Below are positions 2,054 through 61,071 of a stretch of DNA of 64,000 nt, piece after piece. The translations under genes were made by a program, and so were the position numbers. Numbering within the stretch: position 1 is the stretch's first letter; each line of letters starts with the position of its first letter. The stretch is taken from assembly GCF_023055435.1 (NCBI RefSeq), contig NW_025964290.1, positions 310,001 through 374,000 of the forward strand, read 5' to 3'. The notes beneath the pieces were generated by a model that saw only the letters and a program-made list of their open reading frames with translations, was not told where the DNA came from and ran no database searches. The DNA comes from Haliotis rufescens. Taxonomy: Eukaryota.

Positions 2054-2261
2054 ATTGTTTGTGTGTTGTTTTTGTTTGTTGTTTAACGCCGCACGGCGGT
2101 CTGTAAATCTGGACCAAACAATCCAGTGATTGATACCGTGAGCATCGACCCACCAATTGGGATACGGCATGCATCAACCAAGACAGCGAACCTGACGAAC
2201 CGATCCCGTTAGTCGCCTCTTACTGAAGTCGAATTTGAATGCAGGGCATATCTTCGCGGGT
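2054..2261 (-). mobile_element. Short retroposon family A (tRNA-less SINE-like), internally deleted copy
   Basis: Reverse strand carries the GAACCCGCGAAGAT start, TAAGAGGCGACTAACGGGATC, CACTGGATTGTTTGGTCCAGA and the GCGGCGTTAAACAACAAAC tail. Degenerate TSD TCCATGGT(T)GGA on both sides. Confidence 0.8.
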
Positions 2262-3173
2262 TCCATGGTTGGATTAACCGACGTCACACTGCCTAGGACA
2301 GCACCGGAATGTTCAGGTTAAATGGGAGATGTCCTGGCAATTAAACCATTCAATGTCAAAATTAATTCCCATGGTTAAGAAGAGTATTTTGGTTGGCATC
2401 GTTAAACCAATTGTATTTCTATATGTATTAGATCTTTATATCAGTATCTCTTGGTAAGAGTCTAGAGTCCATAAATATATTATGGATACCAAGGTAAAAT
2501 GTGTATTTCATAAAAAAATCACAGACTTTGTTTTTTATGAAATGTGGAATATTAGATTACTTACAATGTTGAAACAATGTCAGATATCAACGTTTTCTTT
2601 TTCAAATCTGGAAAGGCCAATGTTGACACTTTCAACGCAGCTACATCAGATCATTCAAATGTCAACATGGAAACAATGCCTGGTGCCCGCAGAGTCGGGA
2701 GTTCGTAAAAACTGATTGGAAACTTTCAACAAATTTAAACAAGGGGCAAATGAAAGTATACCAAGCTTGTTTTTTAGGTCATTTGAAATTAAGAGAACTG
2801 TTCTTGAATATGAATATGTCTATTTCACCATCTTTCATTTGGTGCAGTTGGTAGACAGTAATCGGGGGCTGGGTAATGCATGGTAATGCTGGGTAATGCT
2901 GGGTAATGCTGGGTAATAATAATTGGTTCAATGAAGACTGGGGTTAGAAACGAAGAAATCACATGCCCCCCGCCATGTTTGAAATGTTGTATATTTGTGC
3001 CGAAAAGTCAAACGTTTTTATTTACAAAGACAGGATTCTACCACACCCACCAGTAGTAACTATTGTGTATCATGCTTTTGTTTTTTTCATTTTTAAAAGT
3101 TAGTTATCAAATTATATTTAAAAAACCCCATAAAACCATGTAGACGTATTGTTTAAATGCTGACTTAGCGCCA

Positions 3174-4782: not shown

Positions 4783-4945
4783 GACCGCCTCCTGGTGAAG
4801 CGATAATGAATAGGGCGTCTGCTCGGAGAGCGGAAGGTCGATGGTTCGATCGTCGTTGTTACTTGTTGTTACCCTGCCTGGAGCTCGTCATTAACGGCTG
4901 GTCGGCTCGGAGTCAGTTTACTGTGCCTTAGTTGGGTATTCATAT
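4783..4945 (+). mobile_element. Degenerate tRNA-head Meta-type SINE
   Basis: Aligns by eye to the copy at 6644 (GACCGCCTCC start, GGTTCGAT B box, TACTTGTTGTTACCCTGCCTGG, GGTCGGCTCGGAGTCAGT). Confidence 0.65.
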
Positions 4946-4955
4946 ATGGGGTATA

Positions 4956-6501
4956 TAAACTAGTGTCCAAAAGAAACGATACCAACTTATTTTCAAAATT
5001 GTTTTTTACTAAGTGAATTGTCAAGTATGAAAACATGCCAATTCGTATTGCACATCCCAAACACAGCATAGTCGATAAAAAATACCGGGAACACGTGATC
5101 ACTTCCGGGAAAAAACGTAAATTTCGTGAAAGTGACATTTCCCTCTCTAGCATGTTCTGCACGTGCAGAAAAACTGTATAAAACGGCTGATCAGACACGT
5201 TGATATCACAGCAACAAAAAGAACACAAGATATGCCACGTTTGACAGCCATCGAGAGAGAGAGAGCCGTTGGAATGGTCCAACAAGGAGCGTCACACGTC
5301 GACGTCGCCAGAAGGTTGGGCTGCGCACGCATCACTATCACCAGGTTGATGCAGCGGTTACGTCAGACAGGTCAGACGTCAGACAGGCCCAGGAGTGGAA
5401 GACCACGAGTAACCACGCCCCGTGAAGATCGTTACATCCGGGTATTACACCCGAGGAACCGCACCGTAACAGCGACGTCCACGGCGGCTACAGCACTGGG
5501 ACACAGGATCAGTCGACAGACCGTCTACAGGAGACTACGGCAGTATGGTATCCGGCCACGTCATCCCTACCGCGGACCGCTCCTGACGCCTCGACACCGG
5601 AACAACAGACTGATCTGGGCCAGGCGAGTTCGACGTTGGCAACGGCGGGACTGGGCACGTGTTATGTTCTCTGATGAGAGCAGATTCCTCATCTTCAGAA
5701 ACGATGGACGGCAGCTTGTATACCGACGATTTGGTGAACGTTTGGCGCCTAACTGTATCCAACAGGTCCGGCCGTTTGGAGGTGGAGGGTTAATGGTTTG
5801 GGGTGGCATATGTGGGGACGTCAAAACGATGCTTGTCGTAATTCGTGGAAACCTGAATGCACAGCGTTATCTTGATGACATCCTACGGCCTGTTGTGGTG
5901 CCCTTTATTCAGCAACAGACTCGTGGACTCCTTTTCCAACATGACAATGCAAGGCCACACACAGCAAGATTGACACAGAACTTCCTTGCCAACGCCAACG
6001 TACAGGTTTTGCCATGGCCCGCATGTTCAACGGACATGAATCCCATCGAGCACTTATGGGACCACCTCGATCGGCAAATCCGACGTCGCCGTGTGCCTCC
6101 AGTCAACGTCCAGGACTTGGAACGATGTCTCCTCGAGGAATGGCAACGCATCACTCCCAACGTCATCAGACGTTTGACGTCATCAGTCCGTAGGCGTGTT
6201 CTGGCATGTATTGATGCTCACGGTGGACATACCCGCTACTGACTTGACTTTGAGACGTGTGGTGTGACATTTCCCGTTGTTCTGTGATCAGTGCTCTAAC
6301 GCAATGTTCATTTTTCGACCCCACCCATCTTTAAAGGCTTGTCATATTGGTTGTACAGATTTTATTGAAATGAATTTTTTGTACAGATGTTGTGAAAGGA
6401 TTTCTCAAAAGCATAACACCAATCCTAAACTTCTGCATTGTTTAGTTTTTCTTTTATGTCGTTGCAAACAGGTGGTATCGTTTCTTTTGGACACTAGTTT
6501 A
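4956..6501 (+). mobile_element. Full-length Tc1/mariner DNA transposon
   Basis: Perfect ~29-bp TIRs (TAAACTAGTGTCCAAAAGAAACGATACCA and its reverse complement ending at 6501), flanked by TA at 4954-4955 and 6502-6503, enclosing a transposase ORF. Confidence 0.95.
5232..6242 (+). CDS. Tc1-family DD34E transposase, 336 aa, intact
   Basis: Starts MPRLTAIERERAVG. Paired-like HTH and GRPR motif, then FSDESRF / FQHDNARPH / DMNPIEHLW with 34 residues between the second D and E. Ends GGHTRY. Confidence 0.95.
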   Translation: MPRLTAIERERAVGMVQQGASHVDVARRLGCARITITRLMQRLRQTGQTSDRPRSGRPRVTTPREDRYIRVLHPRNRTVTATSTAATALGHRISRQTVYRRLRQYGIRPRHPYRGPLLTPRHRNNRLIWARRVRRWQRRDWARVMFSDESRFLIFRNDGRQLVYRRFGERLAPNCIQQVRPFGGGGLMVWGGICGDVKTMLVVIRGNLNAQRYLDDILRPVVVPFIQQQTRGLLFQHDNARPHTARLTQNFLANANVQVLPWPACSTDMNPIEHLWDHLDRQIRRRRVPPVNVQDLERCLLEEWQRITPNVIRRLTSSVRRRVLACIDAHGGHTRY

Positions 6502-6643: not shown

Positions 6644-6956
6644 GACCGCCTCCGTGGTCTAGTAGTAGAGCGTCCGCCCGGAATGCGGAAGGTCCGGGGT
6701 TCGATCCCCGGCCGTGTCATACCAAAAGACGTTAAAAGATGGTACTTGTTGTTACCCTGTCTGGCGCTCGGCATTAAGGGGCTAAAACAAGGACTGGTCG
6801 GCTCGGAGTCAGTATACTGTGTCTCAGTCGGCTAGCACTATAAATCGGCATCAGTCCGGACTAGTACAAGCAGCCACACACACACGTGCCTGCACGTCGC
6901 TATATAAGTGCAATAATCTTGGACGCGACGTTAAATCCAATTTTCACCTCACCTCA
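6644..6956 (+). mobile_element. tRNA-derived SINE with Meta-type central domain
   Basis: A box TGGTCTAGTAG, B box GGTTCGATCCC, central GTCATACCAAAAGACGTTAAAAGATGGTACTTGTTGTTACCCTGTCTGGCGCTC, (CACCT)n tail. Perfect 13-bp TSD CCTCTCTCCTTTC at 6631-6643 and 6957-6969. The Meta assignment is from recalled similarity. Confidence 0.85.
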
Positions 6957-7113
6957 CCTCTCTCCTTTCTATCTCTCTCTTTCTCCTCTCTCACTCCTCT
7001 GCTCTCGCTCTCTCCTCTCTGTCACACTCTCTCATCTCCCCTTTGCTCTCTCGTCATACATAACTTACATAAGAGCTCTTCAGAGAACCGTGATGTGTAT
7101 TTCAGTGACCACC

Positions 7114-8424
7114 ATGATCAGGAGGAAGCTGTATGCCCTGTTTGCCCTGCTGATTCTGTGTTTCTCCTACAAGCTGTATGTAGAACTTACCATCCTCCTG
7201 GTACACGAGGACACACCCCCAGGGAGTAGAAGACACGTGGCTGATGACGTCAGACAACCTAAACAACACCCTTGCTTCTCCGACATCCGTGGCAAGAAGA
7301 AGTTCCAGTGTCAAGAACTAGTCCGCGGCAGGGGATTCCACGCGTTCGCCAACCAGAGCCTCTCCAACAAACGACTCCACCAAGAGCAAGACTGTGATTT
7401 CCTAGTAGCTTTACAAGACTGTGAGTCACTAAGAGAACAACACGGTTACCTGGATAAACCGGTGGCGCTGAAGGAGAAGCACTTCGCCATTGCATACACT
7501 ATAAAGGTGCATAAATCCCCGCGCCAGGTTGAACAACTACTGCGGAACATCTATCGACCACACAACGTCTACTGTGTTCACGTCGACGGGTCGTCGCGGC
7601 GGATGTTTCAAGTCATGAAACAGCTGTCGGAATGTTTTCATAACGTAATCGTTATTCAAAAGATAAATGTGGTGTATTTTTCCATAGGCCTGTTACAGAC
7701 GGACCTTGTGTGTATGGAGGAACTGCTCAAGTCCAACATACGGTGGAAGTATTATATCAATTTGGCAGGGCAGGAATTCCCTCTGAAAACAAATTTGGAA
7801 ATAGTAGAAATTTTACAAGCCTTGAATGGAACTAACGATATTGAGGCGTATCCCTTTCCCGACTTCATCAAGTCTCGGTACTTGACCCATAAGTACATAG
7901 AAAATGGCGTCTTGAAAAGGTCCCACATTCCTAAAGAGCCGTTTAAGCACAACATAACATTTTACAAAGGAAGCATGTACGGTATGTTTTCTAGAAAGTT
8001 TGTTGAGTTTGTGATGACAGGTGAGATCGCAAGGGACTTTGTTCTCTGGCTCAACGACACCTTCGCCCCGGAGGAGATGATGTGGGGCACGCTGAACGCT
8101 CTGCCCGACGCCCCAGGGGGGTACAGCGTGGTGGTGGACCACAAGAAAGGGGGGTTCCTGTCGAGGGCGATGGTGTGGAAGGATGACGACGACGTCTGTG
8201 AGGGCGAGTACGTCCACGGTGTGTGTGTGTTCAGCTTCAGGGACCTGCCCTGGTTGAGTCGCAGACCGGAAGTGGTGGCTAACAAGGTGGACGTTCAGAA
8301 GGACCAGGTTGTCATCGACTGTCTGGAGGAGGCGCTGCAGGCCAGGGCGTACACGGGGAACACCTCCACCCTCGACTGGACGTTCTATAACGCAGCTCCA
8401 CATATGCACATACACAGAAACTAG
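7114..8424 (+). CDS. Core-2/I-branching beta-1,6-N-acetylglucosaminyltransferase (GT14, GCNT family), 436 aa, single coding exon
   Basis: Acceptor TATTTCAG then ACCACCATG. Type II TM anchor (LYALFALLILCFSY). Motifs FAIAYTIKVHK, IYRPHNVYCVHVD, WKYYINLAGQEFPLKTN, YKGSMY, APEE..W.TLN, C.G.YVHGVCVF...DL.WL, ANK. The upstream part of ORF 6886 is SINE/intron. Confidence 0.93.
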   Translation: MIRRKLYALFALLILCFSYKLYVELTILLVHEDTPPGSRRHVADDVRQPKQHPCFSDIRGKKKFQCQELVRGRGFHAFANQSLSNKRLHQEQDCDFLVALQDCESLREQHGYLDKPVALKEKHFAIAYTIKVHKSPRQVEQLLRNIYRPHNVYCVHVDGSSRRMFQVMKQLSECFHNVIVIQKINVVYFSIGLLQTDLVCMEELLKSNIRWKYYINLAGQEFPLKTNLEIVEILQALNGTNDIEAYPFPDFIKSRYLTHKYIENGVLKRSHIPKEPFKHNITFYKGSMYGMFSRKFVEFVMTGEIARDFVLWLNDTFAPEEMMWGTLNALPDAPGGYSVVVDHKKGGFLSRAMVWKDDDDVCEGEYVHGVCVFSFRDLPWLSRRPEVVANKVDVQKDQVVIDCLEEALQARAYTGNTSTLDWTFYNAAPHMHIHRN

Positions 8425-8667: not shown

Positions 8668-8939
8668 TTTATTTTATTGTTAAATTATTGTTTAACGCCG
8701 CACTCAGCAATATTCCAGCTATATGACGGCGACCAGTAAATAATCGAGTCTGGACCAGACAATCCAATGATTACCGTCATGAGCATCGATCCACGCAATT
8801 GGGATCGATGACATGCATCAACCAAGTCATAGAGTCTGACCACCCGAACCCGTAAGTCGCCTCTTACGACAAGCATAGTGGCCTTTTACGGCAAGTATGG
8901 GTTGCTGAAGACCTATTCCACCCCTGATCTTCCTGGGGC
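8668..8939 (-). mobile_element. Short retroposon family A, full-length
   Basis: Reverse strand reads GCCCCAGGAAGATCAGGGGTGGAATAGGTCTTCAGCAACCC...GCGGCGTTAAACAAT. Degenerate TSD GATAGTGATTTAT / GATAGTAATTCAT. Confidence 0.88.
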
Positions 8940-9602: not shown

Positions 9603-10277
9603 TTCCTCATAATAAGTTGACATCCATAAAAGCTGTTCCTTATTTGTATCACTACTAAATGCCTTTCAAAGACTTGATATTAACCATTATTTGTATCAGA
9701 TCGGTATATATAACGACGTTAAATAATTGTTTATTCTGATATAAAATAGATATCAGTTGATTCGGACCTTCTACAACGTGCTGATTACCTGTGGTAGTGA
9801 TACGAGCTGATGGAACTCATATCAATGCGTACTAGATTCGTATGGTCTCATAACCATCTGTGTTGATAACGATACGAGATAATAACCACATTACATTTGC
9901 TACTGGTCTAATAGAATATAGCATTCCCTGTGACAAGAATCAGAGTTATCACTTAACTGTCAATGTCCCAAATAGTACAATACAATCGTGACTAGACTCG
10001 TCGCTACGTTTTCATTTAACTCCAACACAAGTCAGGGATTCTAGAGTGAAGACGTTCTCACCCCAAACACAGCCCGCTGAGAATCACCAACACTGCAGTA
10101 ATTACACACGAGATCACACTACGTCGAGATCTTTATACAAGAGTTGAGACCTCAGTTTCACGGCTTCCACAGGACGGTATAGTCTGCACGACTATAATCC
10201 CTATGTTTTCATGGAAGCTCTACTGTGACCAGGTGATAGTGTTACGATGTGCTTTCCAAATATCAACCCAGGCATCG

Positions 10278-10437
10278 GAGTGAGTGAGTATTGTTTTACG
10301 CCGTTTTTAGCAATATTCCAGCAATATGACGGCGGGGGACACCAGAAATGGGCTTCACACATTGTACCCATGTCGGGAATCGAACCCGGGTCTCCGGCGT
10401 GATGAGCGAACGACTTAACCGCTAGGCTATTCCCCCC
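10278..10437 (-). mobile_element. tRNA(Asp-like)-derived SINE family B
   Basis: Reverse strand: TAGCCTAGCGG A box, GGTTCGATTCCC B box, GCTGGAATATTGCTAAAAACGGCGTAAA tail and (ACTC)n. Homologous to 14881 and 33025. Confidence 0.88.
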
Positions 10438-14880: not shown

Positions 14881-15030
14881 GAGTGAGTGAGTGAGAATGT
14901 TTTTATGCCGCTTTTAGCAATATTCCAGCTATATCACGGCAGGGGACACCAGAAATGGGCTTCACACATTGTACCTATGTCGGGAATCGAACCCGCGAAC
15001 GCTTTAAACACTAGGCTAGCCGACCGCCCC
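14881..15030 (-). mobile_element. SINE family B copy (small internal deletion)
   Basis: Shares GGGGACACCAGAAATGGGCTTCACACATTGTACC and GGGAATCGAACCC with the other B copies. Confidence 0.85.
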
Positions 15031-15569: not shown

Positions 15570-15735
15570 TGTGTGACGTCTCACCTAATCAGCAGATTTC
15601 TCCCTCCACCAGTTCCCCAATCACAAGTCAAGGTAAGAGTCAAGTTGTTGTGACTTGGCACGCACACGGGTAGAACACCCCACCTGTCAGTACCCGCCTC
15701 ATGTACCCGGTCATGAAGCAGTCTGTCACTTGGCC
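15570..15735 (+). repeat. 166-bp block duplicated at 19057-19222
   Basis: Identical by eye (TGTGTGACGTCTCACC...GTCACTTGGCC). Confidence 0.92.
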
Positions 15736-16652
15736 ATGGGTGGTAGACACAGTCGCACTACACGCCAGCACCCTGGGAGTCTAATACGGTCCCTCAGCGT
15801 CCAAACCCCACCCGACATACCCGTGAAGGGGGTGACGAGATCGAACTCTCAGAGTAGTTCAAGGTCAGTCTGTTGAAATGTGCCTTTATTGTTGAAACCC
15901 TCCGTCTACCCTCTCTTTGTATACAACATGACACAATATCTATATTAAGACGCCTCTTTGTTGTAAGTATTACCAGTTGTGTGGACCACACGCGCCATAA
16001 CCTGGGCTTTCTGTGTCCCGGTCACTCTGGACTCAGTTCAGATTAGAAAGTATTGCCCAGCGAGAACATCAGCGTGGCCTGAGGTCACCAAAGCGGAAAC
16101 AATTGCAGTGGCTGTTTGCGCGGCATATCGACATGAAGCTTGATGACCTTGTCAGCTGATCGGGGAAGGTCAGGCCGATACTCTACATTCTCCGCAACGA
16201 TTCATTCCCTTGGCGGTGCAGTAGGTTTACTGATGTGTAGCAGCCGCATCACGTCTAGGGAATGACGACGAATACTTGGAGGGGGTTCAGGGGATTTACT
16301 GTGTCTGTTCAGTCTGGGATATGTAGATCCCAACACAATGTGGTGTAATGTGTATAAGGCTGATAATACCCTATACAAAATAAGGTGGAATTAGATTACA
16401 AGAATCTATAAGTATACAGACGTATTATTACATTTACTATATACCGTGAGCGTCAATGTACGCATATGTTACACAATACAATAAGAACAACCATCAGTAT
16501 ATTATTACACCACAAATCCCATTTATATGACACAATACACATCAAAATATAACAATATGTACATATAACTATTAGCACACAAATACCAACCTCGTCCTTG
16601 GGACACAGGCACATCACGGCGAAGACAACAGTCACGCTCTATATGAACCTCT

Positions 16653-16812
16653 TATGCCCAATAATAAAATGACATAATTGTGTAAGATGTATATTATACG
16701 CACACGGACATGCTTTCTCTCTGCCTCCATCTCACACTCACAGAGTCGTAGATGCACTACATCAGTACATATTTACCAGTACTATTCATTTAACTGTGTA
16801 CATAATAACCAG
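16653..16812 (+). repeat. 160-bp block duplicated at 19233-19392
   Basis: Identical by eye (TATGCCCAATAATAAAATG...CATAATAACCAG). Confidence 0.92.
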
Positions 16813-19056
16813 TAAGTACAGTTAAAGGACTGAAAAACAATAAATCTCCGGGACCTGATGGGCTCACAAACGAACATATTAAGTATGCGGGAAGATCTTT
16901 ATTAAAGCATATTATGGTATTATTCAATGCTATTATTAAACATGAATATATACCCAAAATGTATCATATTGGCGAAATCTTACCAGTACATAAGGGACGA
17001 GGAAAAAGTAAAAGTGATCCATCTAACTACAGGGGCATAACACTAACTTCAGTCCTAAGTAAGCTTTTCGAAAGAATGCTTCTCAACAGAATCGAAAAAT
17101 GGATAAGCGACGATGTAACCTTCCCTCACCCACTACAGTTTGGATTTAGAAAAAATGCTGGTGCTGAAACGGCGGCTCTCACTCTTCTAGAAAGTATTTC
17201 ATACTTTAACGAAAGAAACTCACCAGTTTATTGTGCCTTCCTCGATAACGAGAAAGCCTTCGATCGTGTTTGGCTTGACGGTCTCTTCTACAAATTACAT
17301 AAATTTGGTATCAATGGTAAAGTATGGAGAATTCTACGTTTGTCTTACAATTCTATGTACTCATGTGTTAGCTTTGCTGGCTTCAAATCTGATGTTTTCC
17401 CTGTTAAACAGGGTGTAGGTCAGGGTCGTGTCATATCAGCATGGCTCTTTACTCTTTATATAAACGATTTGCTTCATGAACTAAGCAATTCCGGTTGTGG
17501 ACTATGTCTCCCATGGGGACGATGCCCAGGAATACTGTTAGCAGACGACACGACCTTGATCAGCTGTAACACAACAGGTCTTCAAATGCTCCTAAACGTT
17601 GCAGAAAATTATGGTAACAAGTGGCAGTTAAAATACAATGTGTTCAAAAGTGCTGTCCTAACTTTTGGATGTAGTAAAAAAATAGTGTCGCCTGAACATC
17701 TTTACATTGGTAAGATAAAATTACCTGTTCAAAAGGCAATTGTCTATGCGGGAGTGTACATAAGTACTGCTAAAACTTCGGTAGAAAGAACGAGGTTAGC
17801 ATGTGAAAAACTGAGAAAATTGATAAATGTAAACCATGATTCTGGCCTGTACTTTGGTGGACTTAATCCTATAGCCGCCGTGCGCATCTGGCAACGAGTG
17901 ATATTACCCTGTGGCTTATATGGATGTAATGTGTGGGGAAAACTATCATTAAAGGAATATGAAATGCTAGAAATCACTCAACGCTATTTCTGTAAGAAAA
18001 TCCAGGGTTTTAATAAGCGTATGCCTAAAGAAATAGAGAGGGACACAATTGGTGTTATATCAGTACAAGGATACATTGATCAACAAAAGCTTTTGCTCCT
18101 TGGTAAGCTATGTAATTCAAACCTAATGTATATTTTCAAACAAATGTTTCTAGCCCGACTTGGACAGTTTAGATATAAAACAACACTAGTTAATAAGAAC
18201 AAGTGGGACACGAAATCACCCATCTTTAGCATGCTACATCTTGTCTCCAAATATAATTTATCTGACGAGGTTAATGATTATATAATGTGTTCAAATTTCA
18301 TCAAGAAACGATTATGGTCAAAACTGGTGAAAGAAAAGATTCACCTACACGAAAAACAATTACTAAACAATGCGTTTCTGAGCAGATTATCTCTGTCAAG
18401 ATATCTAACAATACGATCTGGACGAGAACATAGATTATGGAAACTTGCTCTCGATAGACCAGAATATTTTACTTCCTTAGCTAGACTAGTTCGCTTAGGT
18501 TCAATGCCAATAGAATCAAAGGAATGTATTTGTGGAACAGTTGCGAATGATATAGTGAAACACGTTTTCATGTCATGTCAAAAGAATTTAGAAGAAAGAA
18601 ATATCATATTTGATAAAATCATTGATTTGCTTGATGTTAAAATATTTGTGAGAATCTGGGCAGACGATGACACCTTTCTGACTTTTTGGCTTGGCGGTTT
18701 ACCTGAACAACTTGAAGTAGAATTAGACTACAATGTATGGGCAGAGAGCATGATAAATATTGGTGGTGCAGTAAAAAAGTGGGATGAAGTCATCCGAAGC
18801 TGCTTATACTAAACAATGTATGTATTGTAAACAAGTGTACATTTGTAAATAACACATGCTTATTGTCCATCTAATAACACAAATAATCAATACGATACAT
18901 ATGTATAATATTTTTTATGAACTACTTCTGACATATATGTAATATATATATGTATGTGTGTGTGCACATTTATACTATAGATGTTGTCCTTTCACTGTAT
19001 ACCTTGTACTCTTCATGAAATGGAGGAAATAAAGAAGATCTATCTATCTATCTATC
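16813..19056 (+). mobile_element. 5'-truncated non-LTR retrotransposon (LINE; RTE-X/CR1-like, clade uncertain)
   Basis: Frame is open from the junction (VKGLKNNKSPGPDG). RT ORF, 3' UTR, AATAAA and (ATCT)n tail follow. No endonuclease domain is present. Confidence 0.92.
16914..18812 (+). CDS. LINE ORF2 fragment: reverse transcriptase plus C-terminal Cys/His motif
   Basis: SNYRGITLTS.LSKLFE, QFGFR, FLDNEKAFD, GVGQG..IS..LF..YINDL, LADD, and C-terminal CICG...KHVFMSC. No stops over 632 aa. Confidence 0.9.
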   Translation: MVLFNAIIKHEYIPKMYHIGEILPVHKGRGKSKSDPSNYRGITLTSVLSKLFERMLLNRIEKWISDDVTFPHPLQFGFRKNAGAETAALTLLESISYFNERNSPVYCAFLDNEKAFDRVWLDGLFYKLHKFGINGKVWRILRLSYNSMYSCVSFAGFKSDVFPVKQGVGQGRVISAWLFTLYINDLLHELSNSGCGLCLPWGRCPGILLADDTTLISCNTTGLQMLLNVAENYGNKWQLKYNVFKSAVLTFGCSKKIVSPEHLYIGKIKLPVQKAIVYAGVYISTAKTSVERTRLACEKLRKLINVNHDSGLYFGGLNPIAAVRIWQRVILPCGLYGCNVWGKLSLKEYEMLEITQRYFCKKIQGFNKRMPKEIERDTIGVISVQGYIDQQKLLLLGKLCNSNLMYIFKQMFLARLGQFRYKTTLVNKNKWDTKSPIFSMLHLVSKYNLSDEVNDYIMCSNFIKKRLWSKLVKEKIHLHEKQLLNNAFLSRLSLSRYLTIRSGREHRLWKLALDRPEYFTSLARLVRLGSMPIESKECICGTVANDIVKHVFMSCQKNLEERNIIFDKIIDLLDVKIFVRIWADDDTFLTFWLGGLPEQLEVELDYNVWAESMINIGGAVKKWDEVIRSCLY

Positions 19057-22611: not shown

Positions 22612-23805
22612 TAGTTGTCGGTAGCAGCAATAAGTAACAGGGCCTGGAGTTTATGTGCATTCACGAATGTTAGGGTTAGGGTTAGGGTTAGGGTTAGGGT
22701 TAGGGTTAGGGTTAGGGTTAGGGTTAGGGTTAGGGTTACAGTTGTTTGTAGCAGCAATAAGTAACAAGGCCTTGAGTTAGGGTTAGGGTTAGGTTAGGGT
22801 TAGGGTGAGGGTTGGGTTAGGGTTAGGGTTAGGGTTAGGGTTAGGGTTAGGGTTAGGGTAACAGTTGTTGGTAGCAGCAATAAGNNNNNNNNNNNNNNNN
22901 NNNNNNNNNNNNNNNNNNNNNNNNNNNNNNNNNNNNNNNNNNNNNNNNNNNNNNNNNNNNNNNNNNNNNNNNNNNNNNNNNNNNNNNNNNNNNNNNNNNN
23001 NNNNNNNNNNNNNNNNNNNNNNNNNNNNNNNNNNNNNNNNNNNNNAGCAATAAGTAACAGGGCCTTGAGTTAGGGTTAGGGTTAGGGTTAGGTTAGGGTT
23101 AGGGTGAGGGTTGGGCTAGGGTTAGGGTTAGGGTTAGGGTTAGGGTTAGGGTTAGGGTAACAGTTGTTGGTAGCAGCAATAANNNNNNNNNNNNNNNNNN
23201 NNNNNNNNNNNNNNNNNNNNNNNNNNNNNNNNNNNNNNNNNNNNNNNNNNNNNNNNNNNNNNNNNNNNNNNNNNNNNNNNNNNNNNNNNNNNNNNNNNNN
23301 NNNNNNNNNNNNNNNNNNNNNNNNNNNNNNNNNNNNNNNNNNNNNNNNNNNNNNNNNNNNNNNNNNNNNNNNNNNNNNNNNNNNNNNNNNNNNNNNNNNN
23401 NNNNNNNNNNNNNNNNNNNNNNNNNNNNNNNNNNNNNNNNNNNNNNNNNNNNNNNNNNNNNNNNNNNNNNNNNNNNNNNNNNNNNNNNNNNNNNNNNNNN
23501 NNNNNNNNNNNNNNNNNNNNNNNNNNNNNNNNNNNNNNNNNNNNNNNNNNNNNNNNNNNNNNNNNNNNNNNNNNNNNNNNNNNNNNNNNNNNNNNNNNNN
23601 NNNNNNNNNNNNNNNNNNNNNNNNNNNNNNNNNNNNNNNNNNNNNNNNNNNNNNNNNNNNNNNNNNNNNNNNNNNNNNNNNNNNNNNNNNNNNNNNNNNN
23701 NNNNNNNNNNNNNNNNNNNNNNNNNNNNNNNNNNNNNNNNNNNNNNNNNNNNNNNNNNNNNNNNNNNNNNNNNNNNAGCAATAAGTAACAGGGCCTGGAG
23801 TTAAT
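22612..23805 (+). repeat. Interstitial telomeric (TTAGGG)n blocks alternating with a ~40-bp spacer; two assembly gaps
   Basis: At least three (TTAGGG)~11-13 tracts, each bounded by CAGTTGTTGGTAGCAGCAATAAGTAACAGGGCCTTGAG. N runs at 22885-23045 and 23183-23776. Confidence 0.93.
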
Positions 23806-24097
23806 GTACAGAATATTGTCATTGTTGATTGTGATGAAGAAGGAATATCCCCGTGCTTAAATCTAGAAAACCGTTGGAAGCTGGCACCATGTCGGTATCT
23901 GGACAAGTATCCGAACTCGAAAGTAGATTAGAAACACGTCAGGTTTAATTTGAGCCGACCGCTTCTAGAAATGGTTACATCTATCATATTCAAAGGGCAG
24001 ATAACTCCATCACTCACTTTGTCACTCTGTTCTATCAAGCACTTCATATGGCACTGCCACTCACTCACTCACTCACTCTCACTGTTTCAGACCGGTC

Positions 24098-25262
24098 ATG
24101 GCGGAGTATCTGAAGGTGGGTGACATGCAGGAGGCGGTCATGGAGTGTCCCGTCTGCTCCTACGTGTTCGACAGCGACGATCGTACTCCGAGACTGATGT
24201 CGTGCTGTGTCTCCTCCATCTGCTCAAGCTGCATCAACGACATCCTCTCCCGTGGAGGCAGCAACTGCATCGACTGCCCCCTGTGCAGGACCAGCCATAC
24301 CATAACGGAAGGGGTAGCGAGCTTCCCCTTGGAACGAGTCATGTTGAAGATGGTGGAGTATGTCAAGGTGCAGAAAGGCCACAAGTTCCCTTGCACTGGT
24401 TGCCCTGACGACAATCAAGCTGTGGCGCGCTGCAAGGACTGTGGTTTGTTCATGTGTGAGGATTGTCTGAATGCCCATAAAAGGAATGGGGTGACACGTG
24501 ACCACACAACCGTCAGCTTTCACGAACTAAGGAACCAGTCAATCCTGAGTTTTGGAACCAGCCACCACTGTGGGCAACACAAACTCAATCCCCTGCAGTT
24601 CTACTGCCGGAAGTGTGACAGGGCCATCTGCGTGTCGTGCACGGTGGTGGAGCATAAAGAGGTCAACGGACACACCATCGTGTCCCTGGACGACATCTGC
24701 GACGAGAGGGCGTCCCAGGCAGACGCCGTGCTGACCTCCCTGGACGTGAGAATCAGGTCGCTAGGAGCTGACATCGAGACAATGAACAAAAAGAAAAAGA
24801 TTCTTAACACTTCTAAGACGTCAGCGAAGAGACAGGTTGAGTCCACATTTGATGCTCTTATTGAGAATCTGAAGCAGAGGAAGGCAATGTTGCTGACAGA
24901 GGTGGACACGAGATACGAGGTCCACAGTTCCGCCATCGACCAACGTCTGGACGAGACAAAGTCACTGACATCACGTGTTGCTTCAGCCTCGGAGTACATC
25001 AGGCACGTGCGCTCGAAGGCAGACGAGATTGAGTCGCTTCAGTTGTTTTCCCAGGTGAAGCAAGTTCTGGATGGGATAGTCCACGAGAAGCGGGAAGGAG
25101 ACGACTGGGAACGAAAGGGACTGGGATTTGACCCCACCTTTGCACGTGACGTGGACGAGCTCATTCAGCACACGGGGGCAATCAAGACTGTGACCTTCAT
25201 GAAAGACCAGACCACCTCAGGTGCCCAGACTCTGTATATTCAGCCCTCTGTTCCAGAAGAAG
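24098..25262 (+). CDS. TRIM/RBCC E3 ligase, coding exon 1 (RING, B-box1, B-box2, coiled coil)
   Basis: Acceptor CTGTTTCAG upstream. RING CPVC...CC...CSSC...CPLC; B-box CTGC...CKDC...CEDC..AH...H; B-box CGQH...CRKC...CVSC...H...H; heptad region. Donor GAAG|GTAAAT, phase 1. Confidence 0.92.
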
Positions 25263-25489
25263 GTAAATGAGAAACGTATAAGTAGAACTATGTATCCATG
25301 ATTCAGGTGATAATCCTACTTATCTGAGGACGTCATACATAACAACAAAACGTGTTCACATTTGGAAACGTGACATTTATAGTTTCTATGAGGATTTCAA
25401 CATTAGTGCATTTTTTTAACGTTGTGGGTAATTTCCTGTGGCTCTGTATCTGTTGCTGAGGTGGAAACAAGATGCTGTAAGTGTGCCAG

Positions 25490-25817: not shown

Positions 25818-26135
25818 CCGTAAGAGGCGACTATGCTTGTCGTAAGAGGCGACTATGCTTGTCGTAAGAGGCGACTATGCTTGTCGTAAGAGGCGACTAT
25901 GCTTGTCGTAAGAGGCGACTATGCTTGTCGCAAGAGGCGACTAACGGGATCGGGTGGTCGACCAGGGTCGTTTACTTGGTTGATACATGACATCGTATCG
26001 CAATTGCGTGGATCGATGCTCGTGATATCAATCACTGAATTGTCTGGTCAAGACTTGATTAATTACAGACCCCAGTCATATAGCTGGACTATTGCTGACT
26101 GCGGCGTTAAACAACAACAAACAAACCAACAAACT
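25818..26135 (+). mobile_element. Short retroposon family A with amplified 22-bp internal repeat
   Basis: About 6 x CGTAAGAGGCGACTATGCTTGT, then the family A body and GCGGCGTTAAACAACAAC tail. Confidence 0.88.
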
Positions 26136-32390: not shown

Positions 32391-33024
32391 GCAAAGCGGC
32401 AGAGGAAGATGTTGCCATGCTAGCTGGTTAGCGTGCTAGTGTGCGTTCGTGCTAGCGTGCGTGCGTGCGTGCGTGTGCTTGTACTCGTTTGGACTAATAC
32501 CGGTTTGTAGTGCGAGATACAATGCCGCAGGTTAACATGAATACCCCATCCAGACACTGTATACTGCCTCCGAGCCGACCAGTCCTTGTATTGGTCCCTT
32601 AATGCTGGGAGTCAAACCAACAGACCTTCCTCACTTCCTCAGACCACACTTTGAAGGGCCATGCATACCAGGAGCCTTGACATCTGGGTGGGAGGGAGAT
32701 GTGTCTGTGCTGATGAAGCTGATGACGGACACTGGTGCTTGTTCAGACTTCCACGTGACGTCGTGCTATGAAGCGCTCTGAAAATCTCTCAGCAGGTCGT
32801 TGAACCCGACAGTTGACCGTGGGATTACCGCAGGTTGTTGTAACGTTCGTCAACTTATGGCGACGGGTATCTTGAGATCTGTCGACCTCGACTACGGATA
32901 TCTTGTGACGGGGCCATCTCGACAACGGGTATATCTTGTCACAAGGTACAGTGACAGGGAATGTGTGACATGAATATACTCTTATAAAAAAGGAAACGCA
33001 AAGACAGATTTGTGTGAGGTAGGA

Positions 33025-33190
33025 GTGAGTGAGTATGGCTTTACGCCGCTTTTAGCAATATTCCAGCAATATCACGGCGGGGGACACCAGAAATGGGCTT
33101 CACACATTGTACCCATGTCGGGAATCGAACCCGGGTGTTCGGCGTGACGAGCGAACGCTTTAACCACTAAGCTACCCGACCGCCCTTGTG
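33025..33190 (-). mobile_element. SINE family B inserted in the Tc1
   Basis: Intact A/B boxes. Perfect 14-bp TSD TGTGTGAGGTAGGA at 33011-33024 and 33191-33204. Confidence 0.93.
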
Positions 33191-33257: not shown

Positions 33258-34239
33258 CATAACGCGTATGTCCCCCGTTGGAATCGATAGCGGCCATGGA
33301 AGAGAGGAGAATTCGAATCATATCCTGGAGAATGGTATCCCACTCGGCCTGCAATGCAAAAGCAAACGGCTGCAACGTCTCGGGCTGTGGTTGACGTCGG
33401 CGTAGCCGTCTATCCAATTCATCCCACAGGTTCCTCTATCGGGTTCAAATCCGGGGATCATGAGGGCCAGGGGAGAACATCAACGCTATTGTTGTGTAGA
33501 CAGGCTCTTGTGATCCGTGCTGTTTGCGGTCGAGCGTTGTCCTGCTGGAATGCACCGTTGCCGTTGGCTGCAGTTGGGAGGACGTGTGGTAGGAGAATTT
33601 CGTTGATGTATCGTTGAGCCGTAAGATGGCCCTGGATATGGACCAAACCTGTCCTGCCGTGATGAGAGATATCCGCCCACATCATAACGCCACCCCCACC
33701 AAACCTGTCCAGTTCCTGTACGCAGTTTCCGGCGTAACGTTCTCCCCGACGTCTGTGGACCCGTGCTCTCCCACCCTCTCGACGGAGGAGATATCTTGAT
33801 TCGTCGCTGAACCAGTCATCTCTCCATCGCAGTTGAGGCCATACCCTGTGTTGACGACACCAATGTCGCCGCTGTTGACGATGTTGTCGACTCAACATGA
33901 CGCGTCGAACAGGACGTCTTGCTCGTAGACCTGCTGCTCTTAAACGGTTTCGTACGGTCTGGTCGGAGATTCTGCGCAGTCCGGGTATTTGGGATGCGAT
34001 TGAAGTGGCTGTGGTCGTGCTTTCATGTAGGTGGCGCTGTCGGATGTAGCGATCTTAGGCGGGGGTGGTTACTCTTGTTCGTCCCGACCTTGGCTAATCA
34101 CGTGTTGATCCATGCTGTTGAAATCGATTGTGATGGTGCTGGGCGCTATATTGAAAACCCTGGCTACAGCTGATCGGTATTCCCCTGCCTGCAAGCGGCC
34201 TATGGCGGTGTTTCTTTGCACTTCTGTTAATCTTGGAAT
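33258..34239 (-). pseudogene. Tc1 transposase pseudogene
   Basis: Start codon mutated to ATT (PRLTEVQRNTAIGRLQAG). WFSDESRY and FQQDNARP are retained. In-frame TGA in WPS*SPDLNPIE, plus frameshifts. Ends GGHTRY. Confidence 0.88.
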
Positions 34240-34729
34240 GTTGTTGAACTGTCACTGTCCGATTGAAGCAGATGCCAGGCAATCAAAACCCCTGCCCTTT
34301 TATACCGTTCATAGTGCTGTTGCACGTGCAGTGCGTGCAGCTCCAAGGCCCTTTTGTTAATGCACTGGATGCGTTTTTCCGAATCGTATGTGTTTCCCGA
34401 CTAATGGTTTGCATTTCCTTGTTGTGATCATTTTGAAATTTGCCACTGACACTAAAGCACATTGAACCTCTTCATTTGGCCCTTTTGGTCCGCTAATTTT
34501 GCTTTTATGACGAAAACTATCCTATTGCGTTTCTTCTTTTGAAGAGTATATGTTGAGTCATGTTTAAGTTACTCTAAACGCAATATTACTGGGATCCGTC
34601 TCATGTCTCGCGGTATTTCCATACTGACGTGAGAACATATAAGTTCCAGCATCCATGTGAATCCTGGCAAAGCGACACAAAGTATCCGAGGTTGGGTGAA
34701 GGTGGTTGCGCTATGTACAAGCAACAGTG

Positions 34730-35025
34730 GACCCGTGAAGATCCGGGGTAGAACAGGTCTTCAGCAACCCATGCTTGACGTAAAAGGCGACTATGCTTAC
34801 TGTAAAAGGCGACTATGCTTGTCGTAAGAGGCGACTAACGGGTTCGGGTGGTCAGACTCGCTGACTTGGTTGACGCATGTCATCGTATCCCAATTGAGTG
34901 TATTGATGCTCATGTTGTAAATGACTGGATTGTCTGGTCCAGACTCGATTATTTACAGACCGCCGTCATATAGCTGGACTATTGCTGAGTGCGGCGTTAA
35001 ACAACAAACAAACAAACAAACAAAA
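34730..35025 (+). mobile_element. Short retroposon family A, full-length
   Basis: GACCCGTGAAGATCCGGGGTAGAACAGGTCTTCAGCAACCC...GCGGCGTTAAACAAC(AAAC)n. Degenerate TSD ACAAGCAACAGTG / ACAAGCATTTGTG. Confidence 0.92.
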
Positions 35026-35147
35026 CAAGCATTTGTGACGATATCTAGTTCATACAGATGTATGACACACACTGAACACCATGTAGGAATACACCTTGTC
35101 GCAGTTGTCAGACAAATCAGAGACGGGCTGTCCATTCCAGGATAGTC

Positions 35148-52102: not shown

Positions 52103-52263
52103 CTTAAACCACTAGGCTACCCGACCTCCCCGCATGTCATCGTATCCCAATTGCGTGGATCGATGCTCATGATGTCAATCACTGGATTGTCTGGTCCAGA
52201 CTCGATCATTTACAGACAGCCGTCATTTAGCTGGAATATTGCTGAGTGCAAAGTTACACACAC

Positions 52264-52292
<29 letters not shown>
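52103..52292. mobile_element. SINE B head fragment (-) back-to-back with the 3' half of family A (+)
   Basis: CTTAAACCACTAGGCTACCCGACCTCCCC followed by GCATGTCATCGTATCCCAATTGCG...GCTGGAATATTGCTGAGTGC and an (AAAAC)n tail. Confidence 0.75.
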
Positions 52293-55929: not shown

Positions 55930-56168
55930 GACCCGTGAAGATCCGGGGTAGAATAGGTCTTCAGCAACCCACGCTTGCCGTAAATGGCGACTGACGGGAT
56001 CAGATGATCAGGCTCGCTGACTTGGCTGATGCATGTCATCGTATCCCAATTGCGAAGATCGATGCTCATGATGTCAATCACTGGATTTTCTGGTCCAGAC
56101 TCTATTGTTTACAGACAGCCGTCATATAGCTTGAATATTGCTGAGTGCGGAGTTAAACAACAAACAAA
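55930..56168 (+). mobile_element. Short retroposon family A, full-length
   Basis: GACCCGTGAAGATCCGGGGTAGAATAGGTCTTCAGCAACCC start. Degenerate TSD CTACATTGGAGG / CTGCAGTGGAGG. Confidence 0.9.
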
Positions 56169-57983: not shown

Positions 57984-58240
57984 ACATGTTTGTTGGTTTG
58001 TTTGTTGTTTGATGCCGCACTCAGCAATAGTCCAGCTATATGACGGCGGTCCGTGAACAAACGAATCCGGACCGGACAATCCAGTGATTGACATCATGAG
58101 CATCGATCCACGCAGTTGGGAAACGATGGATGACATGCATCAACCAAGTCAGCAAGCCTGTCCCCCCCGATCCCTGTAGTCGCCTCTTATGACAAGCGTG
58201 GGTCGTTGAAGATCAATTCTACCCCGGATCTTTACAGGTT
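57984..58240 (-). mobile_element. Short retroposon family A, full-length
   Basis: Reverse strand AACCTGTAAAGATCCGGGGTAGAATTGATCTTCAACGACCC. Perfect 11-bp TSD GTGAACATACG at 57973-57983 and 58241-58251. Confidence 0.92.
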
Positions 58241-59733: not shown

Positions 59734-60990
59734 CTACTTGCAGCTGCGCAGTCGGGACTGCGGGACGTTTCTATAGTGATACCAGTTCAAGTTAAATGTT
59801 TCGCCCAGCATCGCTTTACGATGTAACCAACCCTCGAGACAGTCAATAACCAACTGATCCAAGTTTGAATGGAATTTGTTAGCCACGACTTCCGGTCGAC
59901 TGACCAACCAGGGGAGATCTCTATGGCTGAACACACACACGGACCGAACAAACTTGCCCTGACATCGCGCTCTGTCCCACTCCCAGATCACGGCTCGAGA
60001 CAGAACCTGGTTCTGTGTGACATCATGCTTGACAGTGACGTCATATCCCCCAGGAGCCCCGGGCTGGGCATTCAACGTCGCCCACACCAATTCCTCCGGC
60101 GCATAGCTATCCGCTGCCCAGTCTATCAACTCTGCTGCAATGTCGCTCTCGAGAATATAAATAGCAAAAGCGCGGGAAAACATCCCATACATGCTTCCCT
60201 TGTAGAGAGTGATGTTCCGCTTGAAGGCTGGTTTGGTGTCATTAAGTCGAGTCTTTATGGTCCCATTGACGACCGAATACCGTGTTTCAAACCTCCATCG
60301 TAGATCCCTAGGGAACGGATATTGTTCAACATCATTTGTGCCATTCAGTATTTTCAATATTTGCACAATCTCCAGATTGGTCTTAAGAACGAACTCTTGT
60401 CCGGAGAGAAGAATGTAGTACTTCCACTCTATCGTGCTGTTTGCCAACATCTTCATGCACGCAACTGCCGACGTCACTAAGCCATTGCCACCGTAGACCA
60501 CCCCCACTTCCTGCAGGACCACTACGTTGTGGAAACACGTGGCCCACTGAGCCAGGGGGACACTCACAGACCGGCTTGCCTTCCTGTCAACATGGATACA
60601 GTACACGTTGTGAGGTCGGTAGATTGTTCTCATCAGCTGGGCCACCTGATCAGGGGCGGTGTGGACGATGAGGGCAAACGCCAACGGGAACGCCGTCTCC
60701 TCTTCCAACACAGGACGACGGCGGTGATGGGGTTGTACCAAATCGCCACAGCCTCGCTCAACCCTTCTGGAAACACGTGTCGTATGCCAGGGTTGTGAGA
60801 CTGTCGTGTTCACGTGATCTGGGTATCCTCTCATCAGTCGTCCACATCTTCCGTGACCTGTCTGGGGGTGTAGATCCAATGACCCTGTTGCCCTGTAATG
60901 CGGAGGGCGTGTCGTGTGTGTGGAGAGGTATCGGACCACGAAGACTATCCCAGCAGCTGTGAGGAGTCCGGCTAACCTGGACCTGGCCAT
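59734..60990 (-). CDS. Core-2/I-branching beta-1,6-N-acetylglucosaminyltransferase (GT14, GCNT family), 418 aa, single coding exon
   Basis: Acceptor TTCTTGTTGTAG then GCCGCCATGG. TM anchor. Motifs FPLAFALIVH, IYRPHNVYCIHVD, WKYYILLSGQEF.LKTN, YKGSMY, YAPEELVWATLN, CQGKFVRSVCVF, ANKF. Confidence 0.93.
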   Translation of the reverse strand: MARSRLAGLLTAAGIVFVVRYLSTHTTRPPHYRATGSLDLHPQTGHGRCGRLMRGYPDHVNTTVSQPWHTTRVSRRVERGCGDLVQPHHRRRPVLEEETAFPLAFALIVHTAPDQVAQLMRTIYRPHNVYCIHVDRKASRSVSVPLAQWATCFHNVVVLQEVGVVYGGNGLVTSAVACMKMLANSTIEWKYYILLSGQEFVLKTNLEIVQILKILNGTNDVEQYPFPRDLRWRFETRYSVVNGTIKTRLNDTKPAFKRNITLYKGSMYGMFSRAFAIYILESDIAAELIDWAADSYAPEELVWATLNAQPGAPGGYDVTVKHDVTQNQVLSRAVIWEWDRARCQGKFVRSVCVFSHRDLPWLVSRPEVVANKFHSNLDQLVIDCLEGWLHRKAMLGETFNLNWYHYRNVPQSRLRSCK

Positions 60991-61071
60991 GGCGGCTGCA
61001 CGCTACAACAAGAATACGGATATGAGCGAGCGATTAACTTTGGTTTAACGACTGTTCTCACTGTATTTCAG

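Follow-up and report, generated by a model that had tools for sequence, protein, structure and literature searches.

A conserved RNA fold, predicted as two tandem pseudoknots, heads a tRNA-less SINE of Haliotis rufescens and recurs in LINEs and RNA viruses

Introduction

The ~70-nt head of a tRNA-less SINE in Haliotis rufescens is a conserved RNA structure, predicted from sequence as two tandem pseudoknots, and its breadth extends beyond molluscs. SINEs of this kind are already known; it is the conserved RNA fold that is undescribed, and its distribution is surprising. We propose, with a probability of roughly 0.45, that the head is an undescribed xrRNA-like fold that would stop 5'-3' decay and would thereby define the 5' end of the element.

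LP-SINEs of abalone, oysters, and periwinkle are TSD-flanked, ~255 bp elements with a tandem-repeat tail (Matetovici et al. 2016, PMC4758252). According to the parts of that paper used here, their ~70-bp head recurs only at the 5' ends of Nimb-17_LMi, I-3_DR, and RTE-9_CPB and was put forward as a promoter, with ribozyme activity named only by analogy with L1Tc; those parts contain no fold, viral copies, or HDV association. The element studied here is very likely of the LP-SINE kind, for example, Hdi_LP/Hmi_LP of abalone. It resembles the described elements in having no small-RNA head, a ~70-nt head that is also found on LINE 5' ends, TSDs, a repeat tail, and a length near ~255 bp (PMC4758252), and its head profile matches I-group LINEs of the genome at their 5' ends. 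By eye, the scallop head in Figure S2 of the same paper has the same AAGAAU and CGUAAGAGGCGACUAA words. The fold, its viral copies, and assays of LP heads for ribozyme or xrRNA activity are undescribed in the portions of the literature searched, which took in few subscription journals and included PMC6765202 and PMC11481361; PMC10085705, also used in part, has 26 motifs, which could include the head fold.

Results

The SINE and its copies in the window

We analyzed a 64-kb stretch of the H. rufescens genome (the window; 64,000 nt of contig NW_025964290.1), in which the original prediction had placed five copies of the SINE. All five were confirmed at the positions named, each between TSD-like repeats, and we found two partial copies beyond them (~25.8-26.1 kb and 52131-52287; Table 1). 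The repeats match at 10 of 12 positions around the 55930 copy, 9 of 10 around 8668, 11 of 11 around 57984, and over ~13 nt, imperfectly, around 2054. The start motif that the copies were said to share, GACCCGTGAAG, is exact in two of the five, but has three mismatches in 8668 and 57984, and the 2054 copy starts with AACCCGCGAAG. This last copy retains ~11 nt of the head, the rest being swapped for unrelated sequence.

In the focal copy (34730), the 22-nt hairpin unit occurs three times in succession, a feature absent from the original prediction. Among 29 scorable heads of 52 random copies (23 unscorable), two such units were commonest, 23 versus 6 with a single unit. As originally proposed, the SINE has no tRNA or 5S head: the Rfam matches in the window were two tRNA-like ones only, both outside the SINE. 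A scan of the SINE found no A box at ≤1 mismatch and one B-like word with 2 mismatches; the same scan detected the tRNA-headed SINE of the window.

Table 1. Positions of the SINE copies, the parts of the focal copy, and other features of the window
Feature	Position	Strand	Remarks
Left target-site duplication, focal copy	34717..34729	+	10/13 bases equal to 35025-35037; decayed, 13 bp
SINE copy (focal copy)	34730..35024	+	LP-SINE type, three-unit variant
Pseudoknot 1 (PK1), predicted, H-type	34730..34762	+	Covariation
PK1 helices	S1 34732-34735/34744-34747; S2 34737-34743/34756-34762		
PK1 loops	L1 U34736; L3 34748-34755		L3, AGAAU loop (AGAAC in focal copy)
Pseudoknot 2 (PK2), predicted	34763..34842	+	Covariation
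PK2 S3	34763-34766 with 34772-34775		Or with UGCU 34816-34819 of third unit
PK2 S4	34768-34770 with 34840-34842		S3-loop CCC with GGG
PK2 hairpin P5	34821-34824/34832-34835		Loop UAAGAGG, then UAA
Three 22-nt copies of S3'-P5 unit	34771..34836	+	Focal copy
SINE body	34843..34959	+	Focal copy; without known homology or Pol III boxes
3' tail	34960..35001	+	Focal copy; like 3' end of I/Nimb-like LINEs and tail of window tRNA-headed SINE (local alignments)
(CAAA)n terminal repeat	35002..35024	+	Focal copy
Right target-site duplication	35025..35037	+	Focal copy
SINE copy	55930..56168	+	Single-unit head
SINE copy	57984..58240	-	Single-unit head, 11-bp TSD
SINE copy	8668..8939	-	Two-unit head
Degenerate SINE copy	2054..2262	-	S1'-S3 replaced
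SINE copy without PK1	25819..26133	+	5.7 tandem 22-nt hairpin units
5'-truncated SINE copy	52131..52287	+	
tRNA-headed SINE	33022-33185	-	Clean A/B boxes, (ACTC)n end
tRNA-headed SINE	10277-10429		As above
tRNA-headed SINE	14885-15029		As above
Second tRNA-like SINE head	6648-6719	+	Rfam 29.7 bits
Pieces related to 6648-6719 head	4857-4938, 6740-6834, 32552-32605		
5'-truncated LINE	16809-19055	+	667-aa RT frame, (ATCT)n end; tail unrelated to SINE
Sequences duplicated exactly after this LINE	15570-15735, 16650-16812		
Tc1/mariner-type transposase frame	5151-6242	+	DDE_3, HTH_Tnp_Tc3_2 (both frames)
Tc1/mariner-type transposase frame	33458-34054	-	
Two single-exon core-2/I-branching glycosyltransferase frames and one B-box/coiled-coil (TRIM-like) frame	6865-8424, 59734-61002, 24005-25270	+, -, +	
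Interstitial telomere-like GTTAGG arrays	22669-23158		

The tRNA-headed SINE of the window has a 3' tail in common with the LP-type SINE and with LINEs. The window also holds many other satellites, with periods of 24, 26, 39, 51, 74, and 79 nt.

An abundant family with a sharp 5' end

We sampled 60 arbitrary 10-kb stretches of the genome with a profile built from 27 near-full copies. The 149 matches merged into 117 elements, of which 114 remained after three tail-only ones were removed. This SINE (238-260 nt, tRNA-less, and TSD-flanked) makes up 3.5% of the sampled bases, or ~250,000 copies by extrapolation. Its 5' end is sharp: 52 of the 114 elements start at profile positions 1-5, 15 at 6-12, 14 at 13-40, and 33 later. 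In 52 random full-head copies, sequence 5' of position 1 showed no conservation; G1 was present in 31 and A2 in 41. We detected TSDs in 13 of 39 full copies versus 5 of 192 swapped controls and, in a second set, in 15 of 40 versus 0 of 117, with 14 of these 15 ending within -1 to +2 of G1. Over its last ~40 bases, the SINE is similar to the 3' ends of I-group LINEs from the same genome. No exact partner LINE ending in (CAAA)n was detected, and the ones that we observed have (ACTC)n ends.

Size-selected small-RNA libraries of a related species gave 9, 117, and 13 reads on locus L004, none of them at the 5' end. Antisense small RNAs of ~31 nt, a piRNA-like size, piled up on the SINE body (L004:1652-1682; runs X21 and X22).

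The head is predicted to fold into two tandem pseudoknots

In the predicted fold, PK1 is built of S1 (CCCG/CGGG) and S2, separated by 1-3 nt of loop, with a further loop (L3) that ends in AGAAU; one family takes a ~55-nt insert in L3, with its 5' end unmoved. The S3 stem of PK2 is AGCA/UGCU in this SINE and UCCG/CGGA, CUCG/CGAG, or GCGUG/CACGU elsewhere, and in S4 the S3 loop pairs downstream of the hairpin GUCG-loop-CGAC (P5) and a short A-rich joiner. The core word occurs in at least 120 metagenome stretches, which include several repeat families, and also in virus contigs. A covariance model (R1), which includes a copy of this SINE family, matched the focal copy at 34727-34808 with E 6e-12.

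We aligned 21 heads with MAFFT, unguided, leaving out three candidates (a long insert, a deletion, and a duplicate); S4 was not alignable. Of the cells of S1, S2, S3, and P5, 88.9% were paired, a level reached by none of 500 shuffles; 58 changes were double-sided, and slid controls on the same alignment were 28-51% paired. Partner-swap tests on 22 and 19 lineages, the latter set including four sequences found after the model was fixed, gave p=0.014 and 0.003 for S1, p<1e-4 for S2 and S3, and p<1e-4 and 3e-4 for S4; the lineages are not independent, so that these values overstate certainty. The four sequences of later discovery each contain all four stems. S1 hardly varies, and the invariance of P5 was partly imposed by the search words; in LINE heads from a protein search, the P5 stem was kept and its loop was variable.

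Covariation thus supports a structured head (S1-S4, 19-22 lineages), for a revised fold. The GAAGAUC/GGUCUUC stem, its GAUCUUC variant, and the GUCG/CGAC hairpin with UAA, all named originally, are present. However, the outer stem CCCGU/ACGGG that had been drawn, together with GGGU/ACCC loop pairs, was paired in 44.7% of cells, and 464 of 500 shuffles were as high; across lineages, the outer stem gave partner-swap p=0.20 and 0.24, or 0.06 with a wider window. The GGGU/ACCC pairing is possible in this SINE but gave p=0.10 and 0.044 across lineages, in windows that overlap S2-S4. The pairing partners first suggested are mostly wrong, the better fit being two tandem pseudoknots. When this SINE is folded alone, the nested minimum contains the outer stem, which may thus be an alternative conformer there; nested folding z-scores of window copies were weak (-0.3 and -1.0).

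Two further leads on the fold were rejected. An apparent subfamily with a G-C to U-A change favoring the outer stem had 52 exact matches; the 30 that we fetched showed a single old copy within a larger repeat, its flanks shared over hundreds of bases to >1 kb, and are thus not evidence. This dispersed repeat (L566-L595) is >2.8 kb long, with the dead SINE copy as a passenger. An unconstrained descriptor picked the wrong helices for several heads.

The head matched no Rfam family and, as had been noted from its sequence, no known ribozyme template; the Rfam comparison covered described xrRNA classes. Models of the hammerhead, twister, twister-sister, pistol, hatchet, and hairpin ribozymes gave no relevant match (E≤10 or gathering score). 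The nested P1/P2/P3/P1.1/P4 fold of HDV, with its L3 and J4/2 cytosine, is absent from the head, which has two predicted tandem pseudoknots instead.

LINEs carry the motif behind an HDV-like fold or at their very start

A GTDB scan gave three matches in symbiont/MAG assemblies (L204-L206). One of them, L206, is a LINE 5' end, so that these matches are likely host DNA. Reached via the motif, L206 led us to APE-RT-RNase H elements in this genome, which we call "Nimb-like" from their architecture and the cited papers. From 28 model matches in 20 loci, we examined 24 LINE heads, excluding 4 that were truncated, SINE, or weak. All but one of the 24 open with a minimal HDV-like fold of 57 nt, and the motif follows it without a spacer. 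Read by eye, this fold has a 7-bp P1 opening with G-U, P2, P3 with a UCCUCGU loop, and a CUAAU joiner; Rfam RF02682 gave E 0.08, below the gathering score. Hundreds of I/Nimb-like LINE copies start exactly with this canonical minimal HDV-like ribozyme fold, which lacks P4 (e.g., L413:2058-2114). LINE families whose coding parts are only 70-80% alike agree at 90-97% over their first ~310 bases.

Genome-wide, we counted 794 exact junctions of HDV tail plus motif and found one HDV-less copy in that group. The HDV-less pattern samples ~9/16 of such heads; it found five, of which four were still HDV-bearing and one starts at the motif. A sister LINE family without the HDV fold gave 53 matches, and all 30 copies fetched start with U directly before CCCCG. 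Their flanks are unrelated (two share one), and the initial U completes S1 as UCCCCG/CGGGGA; in the two full-length copies checked, TSDs abut it. Three metagenome families likewise start at the S1 base: A in 18 of 22, G in 17 of 20, and G in 12 of 14, counts that include a few off-target matches. In HDV-less elements, the 5' boundary is thus flush with S1 and the first base differs by family, and HDV-defined LINE ends have G at 32 of 33.

The motif lies at the start of RNA-virus 3' UTRs

We found the motif in sense at the 3' UTR start in six RNA-virus lineages. RdRP or capsid domains mark five of these as RNA viruses, with the motif on the coding strand; it begins 5, 10, 23, 73, and 100 nt past the last long ORF in five lineages and lies 13-105 nt from the contig end. 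One contig, L189, has a tandem second copy, cut off. R1 scored >47 bits in 7 of 16 virus-search loci, six being training sequences and the seventh a near-copy. A held-out tombus-like contig (L528) has the four stems at its 3' end, ~200 nt past the capsid ORF (E 6e-10).

One intergenic copy lies in a 212-kb DNA virus record (L192). Two phage-like contigs, L510 (6984-7065, minus strand) and L533, identical in sequence, hold a weak candidate copy with all stems. Since a loose descriptor of the four stems accepted 20 of 112 pattern matches, it is unspecific, and the phage-like copy remains a candidate; a search for further relatives of it found none. The L510 candidate sits in a hairpin-rich intergenic region. 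Matches to loose viral patterns were rejected as due to chance, since the model accepted none of 80 and none of 40; for another pattern it accepted 2 of 74 and 1 of 31.

Discussion

The original view holds in part: the element is a retroposon of the non-autonomous kind, and an undescribed structured RNA at its head likely sets the 5' end; as foreseen, covariation reveals that structure. We suggest that this RNA may block decay. Host read-through transcription would yield RNA containing the SINE, and the double pseudoknot would halt 5'-to-3' exonucleases, leaving the read-through RNA trimmed to S1. The 3' tail of the protected RNA would then likely be recognized, and the RNA inserted, by an I/Nimb-like LINE enzyme. 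Where LINEs carry the HDV fold, cleavage by that ribozyme would yield a 5'-OH and the motif would be a silent second guard for uncapped RNA; in viruses, the motif would leave a short protected 3' non-coding RNA. A decay block would account for all three settings by one function; we put it at slightly under even odds.

Xrn1 needs a 5'-monophosphate, and HDV ribozymes leave 5'-OH ends, which Xrn1 does not attack. This would explain why the motif is almost never the 5' end of an HDV-bearing LINE. LINEs retain the motif behind a rarely lost HDV fold, which argues that it has a role beyond making 5' ends.

The head has at least one predicted pseudoknot and is located in viral 3' UTRs and at retroposon 5' ends. 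According to the parts of a 2021 review used here, xrRNAs need a pseudoknot, often occur in series in 3' UTRs, and had been characterized only in viruses (PMC8374639). The viral classes (flavivirus 1a/1b/2, dianthovirus/luteovirus, and coremin) are alike in being compact, pseudoknotted, at the 3' UTR start, and sometimes tandem (PMC8374639); the head, too, would mark where a protected RNA begins. The head differs in its predicted fold, an H-type and then a hairpin-containing pseudoknot with no three-way junction, and in matching no Rfam xrRNA. In addition, the 15-16-nt ring that encircles the 5' end and defines solved xrRNAs (PMC8374639, in part) is not visible from pairing alone, H pseudoknots of the frameshift type fail to stall Xrn1 (PMC10321173, in part), and the phage-like (L510/L533) and DNA-virus (L192) places are atypical for an xrRNA. 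Finally, the single-base precision (30/30) and leaderless S1 are ribozyme-like, and the motif replaces HDV in sister LINEs.

The head could instead be a new class of self-cleaving ribozyme that cuts 5' of S1, releases the element from host transcripts, and is interchangeable with HDV, a reading that we consider unlikely. The 5' ends are exact and leaderless with any first base, as precise as HDV-defined ends, and the position equals that of HDV in sister LINE families and of HDV-like ribozymes at R2/RTE/L1Tc 5' ends. The size is ribozyme-like, with two predicted pseudoknots and conserved loop bases; linear RNA-virus UTRs do contain ribozymes (PMC13725137, in part), and one candidate copy lies in a phage-like contig. 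However, cleavage at its own 5' end would drop the upstream HDV fold each round, yet only about 1 in 800 copies lacks it (~9/16 sampled), and LINEs with and without HDV differ little in their 3' domain. Rescue would require that the abutting HDV helix block cleavage and that another function maintain the motif. Furthermore, the RNA-virus motif is always past the last ORF, where cleavage would sever the 3' end of the genome, while viral ribozymes in print, so far as the part of PMC13725137 used here goes, mostly precede ORFs. The head has no Rfam ribozyme match, lacks the P3/L3/P1.1 and nested double pseudoknot of HDV-like ribozymes, and coexists behind such a fold. We likewise doubt the broader form of this reading, in which a new ribozyme class would have replaced HDV-like ones at invertebrate LINE/SINE 5' ends and reached RNA viruses, one large DNA virus, and possibly phages.

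It is less probable still that the fold binds a host factor (an initiation factor or the ribosome) or a LINE protein, as a cap substitute or 3' translation enhancer. Sharp ends would then come from protection by the bound factor, and unpaired bases are conserved. The motif stands right behind the HDV-like fold on presumably uncapped LINE mRNA and in the 3' UTRs of tombus-like and toti-like viruses, groups that use cap-independent translation. But binding does not by itself create a 5' end, neither the SINE nor the metagenome families contain an ORF that could be translated, and the head has no Rfam similarity to known enhancers.

A DNA-level internal Pol II promoter, as hypothesized for LP-SINEs (PMC4758252, in part) and offered in the original prediction as an "unusual internal promoter", would suit the 5'-end position and a G1 in only 31 of 52 random copies that could be a copied cap, yet it is very improbable: it leaves covarying stems and RNA-virus copies unexplained, since changes preserve RNA pairs rather than DNA words, the motif occurs in RNA viruses without a DNA stage, one family is U-initial in 30 of 30, a ~55-nt insert leaves the start unmoved, the boundary tracks a helix and not a sequence, and in HDV-bearing LINEs no element starts at the motif apart from the one HDV-less copy found.

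In its spread over unrelated virus 3' UTRs, the head motif is like the s2m-type mobile RNA elements, which are also short and conserved; s2m is unrelated in sequence and fold, and the head motif is found in retroposons as well.

The putative decay block offers a testable answer to where the exact 5' end comes from in promoter-less, tRNA-less SINEs and in some LINEs, a question left open by the LP-SINE paper in the parts used here (PMC4758252). The HDV-like ribozyme fold on I/Nimb-like LINEs goes beyond the six clades listed with ribozymes in the part of PMC5786205 consulted, which do not include them. A single RNA module is common to retrotransposon 5' ends and unrelated RNA-virus 3' UTRs. If the decay-block reading is true, an exonuclease-blocking fold would be at work in animal genomes, which would be new; the ribozyme outcome would likewise mean a new class.
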